Shown: positions 29,451 through 43,455 of the stretch, piece after piece
Numbering within the stretch: the first letter of the stretch is position 1
Layout: each line of letters starts with the position of its first letter
IMG/VR virus record: IMGVR_UViG_2579778670_000004
Source: a virus
Lineage: Duplodnaviria; Heunggongvirae; Uroviricota; Caudoviricetes
Reading direction: 5' to 3' (one strand)
Length of the DNA stretch: 44,004 nt
Position numbers and translations under genes: made by a program
The notes under the pieces: generated by a model
The model's database searches: none
The model's input: the letters and a program-made list of their open reading frames with translations, nothing else
What the model was told of the DNA's origin: nothing

Positions 29451-30269
29451 TCAAAATGCTGAATTAGCAACGGATATAGCCGACTTTTTCCCCATTACCA
29501 TCAATTTATCCAGTGTCATACTTCGCAGATTGTCGCTGTGGATCACCAGATACCCTGCCCGCTCAGCGATCTCTTTGAAAGCGTCAAAGGTCATCAGATG
29601 TTCGCCTTTGGCAACATGGCGCATCCCGGTCACTTTTCCATTTTTGATAGTGGTGATAAAAGAAAAATCTGGAATGGTTGGGTGATTTTCATCGAGTAGC
29701 AGGCAGTGGATGTATTCAATCGCCTCTAACATTTGCGTCTGTGACAGTTGTTCTATGTGAGAGACGGCGAAGCGTTGATGAATCATGGTGTAGGCATCGG
29801 GATACATCATGCCTTTCTTGCCGACCAGTATATTAACGGCATCACGCAAGGGAGTACGGTCATCGGTAGTTGTACTCCGCCTCTCTGGACGCTGGCTAAA
29901 ATAACAATCTTCCAGCTTTTCGAAAACTTCCCAGGCCTGTTCTGTTTCCAGCATTTTGGCATGGCGAGCTGCGCCGCGTTCTGTCCAGAGAATGAGGGAT
30001 CGGGTATGTTTAGCAACTGACTGACTATCTGTCAGTCTGTTTTTGAAGTCGCGTAATTCATTACCTTCCAGCTTAAAAAAATGCTTTCCTACGACAAATC
30101 TGGCGATGTTGCGCTTGAAGTTTTGCTGGATACCATTTACTTCCGTGCCATACAAACTGGCAAGCAATTCAGTAGTGATGACGGGAAGTTGGTTATGATG
30201 TAGCGGAGAAAGGGATTCCGCAGATATTTGGACTGTCATCGCAGTGGCCTCACTTAGTGTTTTTTTCAT
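29451..30269 (-). CDS. Phage antirepressor (ORF6N-type N-terminal domain, KilAC-type C-terminal domain)
   Basis: N-terminal pattern LPVITTELLASLYG...NFKRNIARFVVGKHFFKLEG matches antirepressor domains as remembered. Start moved to the ATG at 30267..30269; the track ORF begins at a TTG at 30287. Confidence 0.6.
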   Translation of the reverse strand: MKKTLSEATAMTVQISAESLSPLHHNQLPVITTELLASLYGTEVNGIQQNFKRNIARFVVGKHFFKLEGNELRDFKNRLTDSQSVAKHTRSLILWTERGAARHAKMLETEQAWEVFEKLEDCYFSQRPERRSTTTDDRTPLRDAVNILVGKKGMMYPDAYTMIHQRFAVSHIEQLSQTQMLEAIEYIHCLLLDENHPTIPDFSFITTIKNGKVTGMRHVAKGEHLMTFDAFKEIAERAGYLVIHSDNLRSMTLDKLMVMGKKSAISVANSAF

Positions 30270-30511
30270 CACCACCAGCGACGCCAATCATCTGGTGGTG
30301 AGCTGTGCAGGGTTGGCGTAACCGGCTAAGTGAACCCGGCGCTTCCACAGAAGCCCCCACACAGCCCACCATAATGCGAATGTGGCCGTGCCTAACACAT
30401 AAAAAAACCGCTAACGCGGCTATGCGTCACTTAGATATCCGGGACGCCAATCCCGGCAACCGATTTTGCGGCTGCGCGGAAACTATAGCCCCGGACTTTT
30501 TCTAAGTCAAT

Positions 30512-37196: not shown

Positions 37197-38151
37197 ATGA
37201 CCATTTTTAACGGCTTGTTAGAAGCGAAAAAAGGCGCGCTCAAAAACGGCGCGATCCCGGCGCTGGCCATCGCCATCGCCGCCCCTAACAAAAAAGTTGC
37301 CGAGAACATCATCATCGGCAAATTGTGGGAAGCCTACCCTGACCACGGCGACAACTATTTCAAACCTAAAATCTGGGAAGATGCCCCGGGCCAACCGCGC
37401 CCAGGCGTCGGTGAGTTTGATGAGACGTTTGCCACAGAACACAGTTTTGATGGCGAAAAATGGGTAGTTAACACTCCTGTTGATTCAGATTGCAGTTCAG
37501 CAGATATCTCACAGGTTAGCGACCTGATGAAACTGCCGGCTCGTGAACGATTCGCCGCCGTTCTGCTGTTCAGCCACGACGCCAACGAAGTCGACAGTGA
37601 ATTGCTTGTGCAGACGCGTGAATACCTGGAGATGCTCGATAACAGTGATACTGACAGTGAGGATGAGGTTGACGCGTTTAACCGCATCGTTCTTGATGCC
37701 ATGGTGGCGTGTAAGCCCATCGAGTACATGCATATTGCTGGATTGAATAATCTGGTACATGCAATTTTGGCAAGTTGCGATACCCAGGAACAAAACCCGA
37801 CCAGTTGGACTATCTCCAAATTTATAAAAAAATGGGTAGAGAATCCCGGTAAACGAGATGAAATGCTGCCGGAGGTAAAACCAGAAACAGCATCCGCACG
37901 TCCTTACAAACAGACTCACGCCACTCTGGATCGTGAAATTGCCTGCGCCCTGTTACCTGTTGCCCCGGAAAAAATCACCCCCAGCATCCTGAAAGCGGCA
38001 GACGAAATAATCAGTCAGGACAGGGAAGATTTTAAACGCTGGTCAATGGCCTTGCGCACAACGGATCAGATCCTTGCCTATGACCGCGCATCAGTATTCG
38101 GTGTTATTCAGAGCGCCCCCGCAAAAGACACGTACCACTTCCCACAATCCC
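37197..38151 (+). pseudogene. 5' part (codons 1-318) of a roughly 738-codon gene disrupted by IS911
   Basis: Reading frame runs into the IS left end at 38152; after removing the IS and one CCC target copy the frame continues into 39405..40666 without a stop. Confidence 0.6.
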
Positions 38152-38181
38152 TGAAGTGGTCAACAAAAACTGGCCACCGAG

Positions 38182-39329
<1,148 letters not shown>

Positions 39330-39404
39330 TATGGCACCTGTGTTGTTCTGAGGTGAGCATATCACCTCTGTTCAGGTGGCCAAATTCAGTAAACCACTTC
39401 ACCC

Positions 39405-40666
39405 TGCGCAGTCACATCGACAACTGGCTGCAAGCTAACGGGCAGCGTGATGCAAATGCTGTTGAAGAGAAGCCAAAGGAAGCAGCACCCAAGGATGATG
39501 TAAAAGTCACCAACCACGGCGGCGGACGATTCTCAATTGATGGGATGATGTCAGAAACACCCTCAAATCAGGGCGAAAAAAGCGAAGCTGCAAATGCTGG
39601 AGAACGTAGTTTGCAGCAGTTGCGTGAGCAGTTTGTCACGCCTCGCCATGTGTATGACGTACCTGAAAATAACGCCGTATCACAGAGGGAACCTGCAGCT
39701 ATTACCCTGGCAGAAGAGACTCCTCCACAAGAACAACTTAGCGAGCAGGTAAAGGATCTGGTGCAGAACGTTGACGCGCTGGTTGAGCGGATCCATGCCG
39801 AAGAGCACAAGCGGCAGAATGCAATCTCAGCTATCGAAACGGAGTTAAAGGACTCAGATGACACGGATAACCTGGCATTGTGGAAGAACGTATTCAAAAC
39901 CGATGAGCGCTTCACCAGTGCTTTCTCTCAGAATGGCGGCGGCACATCCATCAACGGCACTTATATAGCGATGAAAGCGACTCGCGAATTTGGGCCATTT
40001 GGTATTGGCTGGGGGGTAGAGGTGCTGGAGGAGCGCTTTGATAAAGGCGCACCAATAGTTCGCAAAAAACAGGTTGGTGAAAAAATAGAATGGGATCTGA
40101 TTCAAGACGGTGTTGGCGGGTACCTATGTGAAATGCACCACACCATGAAAGTGAGAGTCTGGTACATATTGAATGGGGTACGCGGTGAGTCCGAGGCTTA
40201 CGGATGCACACCTTATATCTACGACACTAAATACGGACCAACAAGCGACGGCGAAGCACCGAAGAAATCCTGGACGGATGCTGTTAAGAAAGCGCTATCC
40301 CCTCTCGGATTCAGCGCCGATATTTTCATGGGCCTGTACGACAATCCGGAATACCGCCAGAGGAATAAAGCTGAGTTTGATATCAAGAATGCCAGCGAGA
40401 ATGCGGAAGATGCTACCCGTCTGCGTAAGGAACTGGATGAGAAGCTTATCAACGTTGCCAATACGCTGGCCGCCGCGGTAACCGCCAACGAAGTAAACAA
40501 GGTATTTGGCCTCATCGCCCGCGAAGTGGATGTACACAGGAAAGCAGCGGAAACCAAAGGCGATAAAGAATATTCATCGTATCTGGGATCACGTCTGCGC
40601 CGTATCACCGACATTAAAACTGAACGCCTCGCCGCCCTTACCGCTGCACAGGAGCAAACAGCATGA
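39405..40666 (+). pseudogene. 3' part of the IS911-disrupted gene; contains a Rad52/Sak-like single-strand annealing domain
   Basis: Frame contiguous with 37197..38151 after IS excision. Motifs FGPFGIGWGVEV and KKSWTDAVKKALSPLGFSADIF resemble the conserved Rad52-family cores (FG..GW and K.A.TD..KRAL..FG) as remembered. Confidence 0.5.
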
Positions 40667-41463: not shown

Positions 41464-41688
41464 ATGCTGCGATGGCAACCGGGAGCAACTCTGCTCTCCG
41501 CATTTGATATCAAAATTGGTCGACTGTCGGCCAGCGTCAGGAAACAGACTTTGACCGAGTCTGATATTGCCCGTGCCTGCCAGAAGGCAGATGACGCAAT
41601 AAGCTACATAATGAGGAAAGACCATGAAAAGCGATCACGACATAATCACCAGAGAAGAAATGGTCGAGCTGACGGGAAGCCCACTTAA
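41464..41688 (+). CDS. Hypothetical small protein
   Basis: ATG with GGAGGA Shine-Dalgarno (shorter than the 41434 track ORF); overlaps the next gene by about 65 bp, so one of the two may be shorter than drawn. Confidence 0.3.
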   Translation: MLRWQPGATLLSAFDIKIGRLSASVRKQTLTESDIARACQKADDAISYIMRKDHEKRSRHNHQRRNGRADGKPT

Positions 41689-41887
41689 ATCAAAGCAATG
41701 TGAGGCTCTTCGCCGGGCTGGAATTTTCTTCATGGAAAGGGCTGACGGACACCCAAAAACAACCTGGGGCCATTTCATGAACCCAATAAAATTTCGCAAT
41801 TTACAGGAGGTGACGACGCGAAAAGATGATGAACCTGATTTTGGAGCAATATTTAATGGCCGGAAAGAGAAAGAACCCAGCAGATAA
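41624..41887 (+). CDS. DUF4224-family protein (integrase-associated, excisionase-like candidate)
   Basis: 87-aa ORF; EEMVELTGSPLKSKQCEALRRAGIFF fits the DUF4224 pattern (ELTG..SKQ...L.R.GI) as remembered; directly upstream of the integrase. Confidence 0.5.
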   Translation: MKSDHDIITREEMVELTGSPLKSKQCEALRRAGIFFMERADGHPKTTWGHFMNPIKFRNLQEVTTRKDDEPDFGAIFNGRKEKEPSR

Positions 41888-42872
41888 CTGGATGCCGCCT
41901 CGTGTTTACCAGGGCAAAGCGGCCTACGAATTCAGGAATAAAGATAACAAAGCGATACGCCTGTGCGCATTGGATGCACCACGATCAGCCGTATGGCTGG
42001 CATATGAAAAAGCGGTCGGTGACGAAAAAGAAAGAAATACTTTTCAGGCGCTCACGGAACAATTCATGACCTCCCCTGATTTTATGGATTTGGCAGTCGA
42101 AACCCGGAAAGACTACACAAAATATTCCGGAAAAGTTCTGCCTGTCTTCGGGAAGATCGACCCGGATAAAATCAAACCTGAACATATTCGGCGCTATATG
42201 GATCAACGCGGTTTATCAAGCCGAACTCAGGCAAACAGGGAAAAAAGCTTTATGTCCCGGGTATTCCGTTGGGGTTATGAACGAGGTTATGTTCAGAGGA
42301 ATCCTTGTCAGGGAGTTAAACAGTTTAAAGAGAAAGCTCGCGAACGTTATATTACGGATGAAGAATATCAGGCCGTTTATGAAGTGTCTCCTGATGTTGT
42401 TCGCGTAGCAATGGAGATTGCCTACTTATGCGTGGCCAGACAGAGTGATGTACTTTCATTGCAGAAAGACCAGCTGTTCGATTCCGGGATCTACATTCGT
42501 CAGGGAAAAACCGGCGTTAAGCAAATCAAAGCCTGGTCGCCTCGTCTGCAGAAAGCGATAGCTCTGGCTCGTTCTCTGCCATTAAAAACGGGAATCAGTA
42601 GCCTGTTTGTGATTCATCAAACTACCGGTGGCAAGTATACCCGTGATGGTTTTAACTCTCGTTGGCGTGATGTCAAAGCGGCAGCACAGGAAAAATATCC
42701 TCATCTGCAAATAGACTTCACATTTCATGATCTGAAAGCAAAAGGTATCTCTGATCTGGAAGGCAGCCTGGAAGAGAAGCAAGCAATTTCCGGGCATAAG
42801 AACCCGCGACAGACAGCAGCATATGACCGGAAAGTTAAAGTAGTGCCCGTAGTTGGTGGCCAGAGAAAATGA
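41856..42872 (+). CDS. int: Tyrosine integrase (lambda family)
   Basis: Catalytic-domain motifs (R..., HDLKAKGIS, AAYDRK with candidate catalytic Tyr); start set at MAGKRKN... (track ORF begins at 41826); adjacent to a tRNA gene. Confidence 0.85.
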   Translation: MAGKRKNPADNWMPPRVYQGKAAYEFRNKDNKAIRLCALDAPRSAVWLAYEKAVGDEKERNTFQALTEQFMTSPDFMDLAVETRKDYTKYSGKVLPVFGKIDPDKIKPEHIRRYMDQRGLSSRTQANREKSFMSRVFRWGYERGYVQRNPCQGVKQFKEKARERYITDEEYQAVYEVSPDVVRVAMEIAYLCVARQSDVLSLQKDQLFDSGIYIRQGKTGVKQIKAWSPRLQKAIALARSLPLKTGISSLFVIHQTTGGKYTRDGFNSRWRDVKAAAQEKYPHLQIDFTFHDLKAKGISDLEGSLEEKQAISGHKNPRQTAAYDRKVKVVPVVGGQRK

Positions 42873-42930
42873 ATGATGATGCGTCCAGAGAAAAATCATC
42901 TTCGGACGCATCTTCGGAAATGAGAAAGAA

Positions 42931-42960
42931 GATACAAAAAAACCACCCGAAGGTGGTTTC
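42931..42960 (-). terminator. Intrinsic terminator of the glyW-cysT-leuZ tRNA operon
   Basis: Minus strand: hairpin AACCACC-TTCG-GGTGGTT followed by a run of U; lies between leuZ and the integrase stop. Confidence 0.5.
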
Positions 42961-43002
42961 ACGACACTGCTTATTGCTTTGATTTTATTCTTATCTTTCC
43001 CA

Positions 43003-43089
43003 TGGTACCCGGAGCGGGACTTGAACCCGCACAGCGCGAACGCCGAGGGATTTTAAATCCCTTGTGTCTACCGATTCCACCATCCGGGC
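43003..43089 (-). tRNA. leuZ: tRNA-Leu (anticodon UAA)
   Basis: Reverse complement reads GCCCGGATGGTGGAATCGGTAGACACAAGGGATTTAAAATCCC...GGGTTCAAGTCCCGCTCCGGGTACCA, a canonical 87-nt tRNA-Leu with encoded CCA. Confidence 0.97.
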
Positions 43090-43101
43090 TCGGGAAAAAA
43101 G

Positions 43102-43175
43102 TGGAGGCGCGTTCCGGAGTCGAACCGGACTAGACGGATTTGCAATCCGCTACATAACCGCTTTGTTAACGCGCC
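43102..43175 (-). tRNA. cysT: tRNA-Cys (anticodon GCA)
   Basis: Reverse complement GGCGCGTTAACAAAGCGGTTATGTAGCGGATTGCAAATCCGTCTAGTCCGGTTCGACTCCGGAACGCGCCTCCA. Confidence 0.97.
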
Positions 43176-43228
43176 AAATTCTTCAGGCCTTTCAGCCAGA
43201 CATCCGCTGACGCCGATGCCTTTTAAAC

Positions 43229-43304
<76 letters not shown>

Positions 43305-43455
43305 ATTCATCAAGCAATCAGTTAATCACTTGATTTTATTATCGTCTGGCAATCAGTGCCGCCGTTCGATGCGTTGCATTCTACTTACCTGGCGCGATGA
43401 GTCAACGATATTTTTCACCACTTTTGATCGTTTGCTGAAAATTGCGCCGAAACGA

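Follow-up and report, generated by a model that had tools for sequence, protein, structure and literature searches.

Within integration into tRNA genes (tDNA), a class that uses the anticodon loop as its sublocation was reportedly defined by Williams in 2002, and in HP1 a long identity at the phage attachment site (attP) spans a segment of a tRNA-Leu operon. The general tDNA integration rule, as set out for the Islander database, is that an island restores the tRNA gene that it splits and that the displaced fragment marks the far end of the island (PMC4383910), a pattern matched by the locus described here; the gene in question, leuZ, has already been listed as a prophage site in genomes of Shiga toxin-producing Escherichia coli (PMC8767318). 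We analysed IMG/VR record IMGVR_UViG_2579778670_000004 (Caudoviricetes), a stretch of 44,004 nucleotides (the window, positions of which are used throughout), the right end of which is the pgsA / glyW-cysT-leuZ locus of E. coli. No deposited phage with its integrase was found, the closest being Pectobacterium phage ZF40, Escherichia phage Fostie and mEp390 at ~63-64% amino acid identity. We consider it highly probable that 41624-43089 is the right attachment junction (attR) of a ~43.9-kb myovirus-type prophage (including a 1.26-kb insertion sequence (IS)) that entered leuZ by lambda-type site-specific recombination, and that its attP combines tandem arm sites with a 125-bp copy of host sequence. 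This reading is carried by the limits of the repeat, the occurrence of the same block in phage attPs, the segregation of phage and host versions in relatives, the conservation and clade-wise variation of the arm repeats, and the lambda-Int-like fold of the integrase (Int); what is new is confined to the delimitation of the attachment site (att) and a candidate arm-site motif for this clade.

The junction is made up as follows.

42919-42933: variable linker from the arm sites to the att block; poorly kept in relatives; the last phage-specific DNA
42929-42960, minus strand: Rho-independent terminator of the glyW-cysT-leuZ operon; 9-bp stem 42939-42960, T-tail 42929-42938
42934-43058: att identity block of 125 bp; direct repeat with the left junction (attL), with an exact copy by yecA (SK1144, strain 1444)
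43003-43089, minus strand: leuZ, tRNA-Leu(UAA), reconstituted (ARAGORN, Rfam agrees); 43059-43089 (5') is host DNA and 43003-43058 (3') lies within the identity block
43051-43057: anticodon loop (plus strand TTTTAAA; anticodon 43053-43055); putative strand-exchange (overlap) region
43102-43175, minus strand: tRNA-Cys (ARAGORN, Rfam agrees)
43229-43304, minus strand: tRNA-Gly (ARAGORN, Rfam agrees)

Within the identity block stand the operon terminator, a trailer of 42 nt and the 56 nt at the 3' end of leuZ; the block stops one base beyond the anticodon loop of 7 nt (43051-43057). In K-12, the yecA-leuZ intergenic region reads ...GCAGGC followed by ACAAAAAAACCACCC..., and the window reads ...GAAGAT followed by ACAAAAAAACCACCC...; because homology between the two starts at 42934, phage-specific DNA stops at 42933. 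Consistent with this, a BLAST search with 42700-43320 recovered the whole junction in 434 of 5,426 complete E. coli genomes, the rest matching from ~42934 only. At the yecA end of SK1144, which carries the prophage without the IS, the host flank is followed by an exact copy of 42934-43058 and then by phage DNA (TGGTCGCTTTG...). Strain 1444 shares the IS insertion of the window and is identical to it over positions 1-1011; its second copy of the block runs from 931 bp to 806 bp ahead of window position 1, and the identity between its two copies extends by no base on either side. A direct repeat of the junction region sought inside the window gave chance matches of 11-13 bp only; no second copy occurs there because the other prophage end lies outside.

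These results bear directly on the original prediction for this DNA, which had been made from the sequence alone. Its view that a prophage end with int adjoins the glyW-cysT-leuZ operon is supported, as are the distances that it gave (the int stop codon, TGA at 42870-42872, lies ~57-58 nt from the operon terminator and 130 nt from the 3' end of leuZ), and its placement of the other prophage end past the left window edge is borne out by the copy that ends 806 bp beyond that edge in strain 1444. It had further proposed a search of the other end for a second, direct copy of the leuZ 3' flank, which turned up the 125-bp repeat in SK1144 and strain 1444, and a comparison with a prophage-free leuZ locus, which placed the start of homology at 42934. 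Its picture of integration beside leuZ, with an intact terminator, has to be given up: the repeat reaches 56 nt into leuZ, to the anticodon loop. Since the block runs into the gene up to that loop, the target is the tRNA gene itself.

The same limit recurs well beyond this prophage. In all relatives, which span several genera, the identity block ends at GGGATTTTAAA(T), and the blocks that follow int in ZF40, in mEp390 and in a metagenome attP contig have the same limits relative to the tRNA gene. ZF40 and mEp390, with Ints 64% and 63% identical to that of the window, are induced phages in which the homologous block stands directly after int and ends at ...GGGATTTTAAAT, and the mEp390 block carries the GenBank annotation putative attP. 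The metagenome contig, OLQX01001335.1, holds the uninterrupted attP of a close relative with an arm motif of the CATCTTCGGA type, in the order int 3' end, ATCTTCGGA-CGC-ATCTTCGGA, terminator, trailer, leuZ 3' half, left arm; in IMG/VR, no contig with an attP of the CATCTTCGGA type was found.

Which copy of the block adjoins int can be read in relatives whose copies differ. E. coli MB20 carries an mEp390-like remnant in leuZ, and its int-side copy has a phage-type terminator loop (GTAG), a 2-bp deletion in the trailer and a compensated T-stem pair (GGAGTGGG...CCCACAC), whereas its yecA-side copy is K-12-type throughout. All of these phage/host differences lie to the left of window-equivalent ~43030, and therefore the crossover falls to the right of the T-stem, at window-equivalent ~43030-43058. 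In three lysogens with an Int 82-85% identical to that of the window, differences between the int-side and far-side copies are confined to the terminator or the trailer and spare the tRNA part, which places the exchange in these closer relatives to the right of the trailer. MB20 and relatives L047/L094 have different terminators on the int and yecA sides, and the terminators of phage attPs are each a version of their own with compensatory stem changes (CCACC/GGTGG, CCGCC/GGCGG and GCCACC/GGTGGC). Judged from these alignments, the int-side terminator, trailer and T-stem are phage-type in relatives with differing copies, and the host originals have been displaced to attL. In the window both copies are identical, so the assignment of the int-side block to the phage would follow here by homology from those relatives.

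It is against this background that integration downstream of leuZ has to be judged, with a crossover in the terminator hairpin or the trailer and with the int-side tRNA gene and terminator as untouched host copies. As an inverted repeat, the terminator hairpin might in principle act as a core, and the crossover is not directly visible between the identical copies of the window. We nevertheless regard this alternative as very improbable, given that in every relative, across genera with differing trailers and terminators, the repeat takes in 56 nt of leuZ up to the anticodon loop, that wherever the copies of MB20 differ in terminator, trailer or T-stem the phage version is at int and the host version at the far end, and that three more lysogens have int-side and far-side copies differing in terminator or trailer. 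For insertion into leuZ itself, the exact cleavage positions would lie within or near the anticodon loop, which in attB (the bacterial attachment site) is flanked by the inverted repeat of the anticodon stem, AGGGA/TCCCT.

Several database records touch on the same site. ON470596, ON470604, ON470624, ON470627 and phage 520873 were considered as free attPs and rejected, as these records begin with host yecA and are prophage predictions with attL. Although deposited as complete phage genomes, ON470596 and NC_049344 (both fetched) start with yecA and the attL copy, and in ON470604, ON470624 and ON470627 the block is at record coordinates 793-917, as in ON470596; the att content of such host-flanked records could be mistaken for attP. 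In some contigs (L008, which is IMG/VR 2636416136_000007, and L006, the phage 520873 record), the int arm and block are followed not by leuZ but by a foreign arm (...TTTTAAA followed by AACTATCAACC), which points to occupation of leuZ by a second element, in tandem or as a hybrid. The P2-like prophage Xuanwuvirus 520873 shares the leuZ site; it has its integrase on the side of yecA and a block that ends one base earlier.

Two genes upstream of the att block would supply the recombination proteins.

41624-41887, plus strand: excisionase-like gene, DUF4224, 87 aa; overlaps the start of int by 32 nt
41856-42872, plus strand: tyrosine integrase gene (int), 338 aa; PF00589 and PF22022

The start of int was taken as the ATG at 41856 rather than the upstream in-frame ATG at 41826 (the mechanical open reading frame (ORF), 348 aa) because all homologues begin MAGKRKNP and RefSeq annotates 1017 bp. 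The PF00589 score is above the curated cut-off, and among solved structures lambda Int comes closest in sequence, at ~26% overall identity. In alignment with lambda Int, R195 (Arg I), K218, H291, H314 and Y323 are conserved, and Lys294 (HDLK; window 42735-42737), which is invariant in 31 aligned family members, takes the place of Arg II (lambda R311, motif HELR). By its profile the protein thus belongs among the tyrosine recombinases, with a catalytic set that departs, strictly taken, from the canonical triad. The aligned members with this lysine include the Ints of the functional temperate phages ZF40 and mEp390, and replacement of R by K at the Arg II position has been reported for other integrases (PMC12884075).

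An AlphaFold2 (AF2) model of Int built from 31 homologues (pLDDT 85) places at residues 17-55 an N-terminal domain with strands 17-19, 23-27 and 33-38 and a helix 43-55 (pLDDT ~84). The top Foldseek matches of the model are full-length lambda Int in DNA complexes (1Z1B, 1Z1G and 5J0N), with ~70 more aligned columns for full-length lambda Int than for the 75-356 fragments. It is the predicted fold and topology that suggest that Int is heterobivalent like lambda Int, with an N-terminal domain of the arm-binding type. The DUF4224 protein matches Pfam PF13986 (E=1e-14) and PHROG 1266, 'excisionase' (E=5e-35), and is 35-39% identical to the annotated excisionases ZF40 gp03 and mEp390 gp28, which occupy the same position; it is best taken as the putative excisionase of this module.

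Between int and the att block lie a pair of tandem repeats and an inverted repeat.

42879-42911, plus strand: conserved inverted repeat or hairpin (ATGCGTCC at 42879-42886, GGACGCAT at 42904-42911)
42897-42906, plus strand: probable arm-type Int-binding site, copy 1, CATCTTCGGA; conserved core ATCTTCGGA at 42898-42906
42909-42918, plus strand: probable arm-type Int-binding site, copy 2, CATCTTCGGA; 12 bp start-to-start from copy 1

The tandem 10-mer is the sole exact direct repeat of at least 10 bp at an offset of 10-20 bp in the 44-kb window. First-order Markov simulations lead one to expect ~0.38 such repeats per window, which makes the repeat unremarkable window-wide and would suit a chance or slippage duplication without function; within the 61-bp linker between int and att, the chance is, by proportion, ~5e-4. 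We take the repeat as non-chance because it is strictly conserved in relatives. Among Int relatives and their flanks collected from IMG/VR (far-end arms being found by pattern search), ATCTTCGGAYGCATCTTCGGAAA is invariant in 16 unique int-proximal arms (Ints 81-100% identical), while the same arms vary freely over the first 4-5 nt past the stop codon and over the linker of 15-17 nt that leads to the terminator. Such invariance in a diverging background, together with clade-specific equivalents at the same position, makes a functionless duplication extremely improbable.

The opposite arm carries related motifs. In 15 unique left arms, the conserved elements are TTGGT adjoining the core, an IHF-like A-TCA-N4-TTA motif (~+20-32), TCCGRACAT (~+43-51), which is the reverse complement of the repeat motif with 1-2 mismatches, a second, IHF-like ..TTAC motif (~+88), and RTCTTMKGA (~+106-114), a direct copy of the motif. 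In this prophage the left-arm copies are TCCGGACAT (inverted) and GTCTTCTGA (direct; strain 1444). In the host-derived trailer of the int-proximal arm, inspection by eye for the IHF consensus found only matches with 1-2 mismatches, which lack conservation. The direct left-arm copy (~+100 from the core) varies among near-identical prophages, reading CATCGTCTTATGA in SK1144, CATCGTCTTCTGA in strain 1444 and relative L105, and CATCATCTTCTGA in relative L097; this variation may be drift in resident prophages or a tolerance of the site to change. In more distant Int clades (64-67% identity), other tandem motifs occupy these positions, again with a period of ~12 bp, as follows.

ZF40-like clade: int-proximal ATATTAGGAA, 2 copies; other arm TTCCTAATAT and ATTTTAGGAA
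mEp390-like clade: int-proximal AATGGCGAA, 2-4 copies; other arm TTCGCCATT and AATGGCGAA
L061, L063 and L064: int-proximal ATCTTCTGAA, 3 copies
L069 and L070: int-proximal ATATAGTGAAA, 3 copies
L071, L078 and L079: int-proximal ATATTCTGAA and close variants, 3 copies

Given that the repeats are conserved in a drifting background, occur on both arms and are clade-specific, they bear the signature of arm-type sites, and on these comparative grounds they are probably the arm-type sites of Int, to which Int would bind.

The inverted pair raises a different possibility. The complementarity of GCGTCC/GGACGC extends to ATGCGTCC/GGACGCAT, and the right half of the resulting hairpin takes in the last bases of arm site 1 and the first of arm site 2. 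The left half of the hairpin, ATGCGTYC, is invariant in 16 unique relatives of the 81-100% Int clade, and a strong RNA hairpin is predicted (fold of 42866-42965, which includes the terminator hairpin, z = -5.4). Substitutions in relatives are compatible with wobble pairing, and those of the L061 clade compensate each other to give GCUUUC/GAAAGC. The energy of the consensus fold is weak, however, and essentially a single clade supplies the covariation. As an inverted arm site, GCGTCC/GGACGC was rejected, since its left half agrees with the motif at 6/10 positions, is not kept as a copy of the motif and has no counterpart on the other arm. The original prediction had located both the tandem repeats (42897-42906 and 42909-42918) and the inverted pair (42881-42886 and 42904-42909) correctly, and had offered both as possible integrase arm sites; that suggestion is supported for the tandem repeats, good candidates that are conserved and present on both arms, and is not supported for the inverted pair.

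Tandem direct repeats beside a core are also typical of Xis sites (lambda X1/X2). The repeats might accordingly be functional without being Int arm sites, serving instead the DUF4224 excisionase or another accessory protein, or making up the 3' side of a hairpin in the int mRNA (ATGCGTCC...GGACGCAT) by which transcript stability is controlled. The overlap with a conserved hairpin, predicted to be stable and showing some compensatory changes, speaks for this alternative, as does the imperfection of the other-arm copies. However, conserved copies on both arms, in both orientations and at matching positions in three Int clades form the pattern of arm-type sites, whereas Xis sites are normally on one arm only; ZF40 and mEp390 have tandem repeats yet lack the ATGCGTYC hairpin; and the lambda-like N-terminal domain predicted for Int would need a target. 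We therefore judge this alternative unlikely, although it is the one that we weigh most seriously. About as doubtful, if anything slightly more so, is the idea that ATGCGTYC...GGAYGCAT, with arm site 1 within its 3' half, is a regulatory element (for example, a 3' hairpin of the int mRNA, or a DNA structure) that couples the occupancy of the Int arm sites to the fate of the int transcript. Such an element, if real, would amount to retroregulation of the lambda sib type in a cis-linked variant, one that remains joined to int in phage and prophage alike.

Several points tell against an arm-site-bearing attP with its crossover in leuZ. At the att block, the identity of the two copies in the window means that neither the crossover nor the phage copy is directly readable, and both assignments rest on relatives with 63-85% identical Ints. 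At the arms, the other-arm copies are imperfect: TCCGGACAT matches at 7/9 positions, and the direct copy GTCTTCTGA of strain 1444 matches ATCTTCGGA at 8/9, with GTCTTATGA of SK1144 at 7/9. A perfect inverted copy, TCCGAAGAT, sought 25-55 nt past the core in IMG/VR viral contigs, was found in none, the imperfect TCCGRACAT standing there instead. Finally, the lambda arm-binding domain went undetected in the N-terminal 76 aa of Int, both with Pfam at a permissive E-value and with a 13-sequence profile against PDB sequences.

Assuming that leuZ is indeed entered at the anticodon loop, integration can be envisioned to begin with the assembly of Int and IHF on attP, with IHF-like sites on the other arm supplying bends. 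The N-terminal domains of Int would bind the two tandem int-proximal sites as well as the inverted and direct sites of the other arm, while its core-binding and catalytic domains would act on the anticodon stem-loop (AGGGA-TTTTAAA-TCCCT in attB). Exchange across the loop would join the 5' half of host leuZ to the phage-borne 3' half, trailer and terminator, forming attR, such that both leuZ and operon termination would stay intact after insertion, and the original host 3' half and terminator would be displaced by ~44 kb to attL, beside yecA. Excision would additionally require the DUF4224 protein.

With 434 of 5,426 complete genomes, the integrase junction is frequent in E. coli, and the Int family extends across Enterobacterales (Klebsiella, Enterobacter, Serratia, Yersinia, Xenorhabdus, Pectobacterium and others). 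Annotations of leuZ prophages should be corrected, as their boundaries belong at the anticodon loop, and the 125-bp att block should be taken to include the tRNA 3' half and the terminator on the int side, presumably as the copy of the phage. The att limits and candidate arm sites would be of use in prophage delimitation, in excision or curing assays and in the design of leuZ-targeted integration vectors. The locus also offers a clean natural example of a phage copy of a host terminator, with compensatory stem changes between phages and with operon termination preserved after insertion.

Elsewhere in the window, Rfam gathering-level matches on the minus strand at 30291-30488 comprise a C4 antisense RNA (30291-30376), isrK (30401-30475) and c4 a1/b1 targets (30436-30488). 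The C4/isrK RNAs lie just upstream of the ORF at 29451-30287, annotated in SK1144 as an ORF6N-domain protein, which we guess to be antirepressor-like; together they are read as a P1/P7-type immI-like (c4-ant) module within the leuZ prophage. The IS, at ~38149-39409, is an IS3-family element annotated as ISEc52, with IS911-like OrfA/OrfB. A prophage gene of 2217 bp, intact in SK1144, is split by it, and the insertion is common to six of the 5,426 complete E. coli genomes (S14, R8, 1448, 1444, E19 and Ec-U4).

Compared with known systems, the module resembles that of lambda in that lambda Int is the best match by both sequence and fold, in the gene order (xis and int, beside attP), and in the layout of the arms, the int-proximal one bearing tandem repeats and the other one further copies, with motifs resembling WATCAANNNNTTR placed between core and arm sites. 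Unlike lambda, which uses the gal-bio intergenic attB, this prophage targets a tRNA gene; its identity block measures 125 bp as opposed to 15 bp; its int-proximal arm sites lie ~135-160 bp from the probable crossover, with host-derived sequence between; the Arg II position is Lys in its Int family; and the sequence of its arm sites is unrelated to that of lambda.

The closest described relatives share more of this layout. In mEp390 (and Escherichia phage Fostie), Int is 63-64% identical and the excisionase is of the same DUF4224 type, and mEp390 has an attP after int with the terminator, trailer and leuZ 3' half and the same end at the anticodon loop. It differs in its arm repeats (AATGGCGAA, four copies) and in a block that is only ~87% identical to E. 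coli and therefore leaves a visibly hybrid leuZ in lysogens, and it is a lambdoid siphovirus, whereas the prophage of the window has P2-like contractile-tail genes. ZF40, on the att architecture of which a literature search found no description, has a 64% identical Int, and its int-proximal arm shares 75% DNA identity with window 42891-43064; a pair of tandem 10-mers with a 12-bp period stands in the same place, and inverted and direct copies both occur on the other arm. It departs in its motif (ATATTAGGAA), in lacking the ATGCGTYC hairpin and in a block that mimics a different terminator and trailer, which we presume to match those of its own Pectobacterium host.

Set beside the generic scheme of tDNA integration (PMC4383910), the locus agrees in the splitting of the target, in its restoration by the element and in the displaced fragment at the far end, and it differs in nothing of principle; the block extends 69 nt past the tRNA and so restores the operon terminator as well. 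Its block ends one base past the anticodon loop, the displaced fragment lies by yecA and the limit is common to all relatives, as in the anticodon-loop class of tRNA-gene integration. The module is best read as a lambda-type Int/Xis/attP system of that class, and in this respect a case of textbook tRNA-gene integration.

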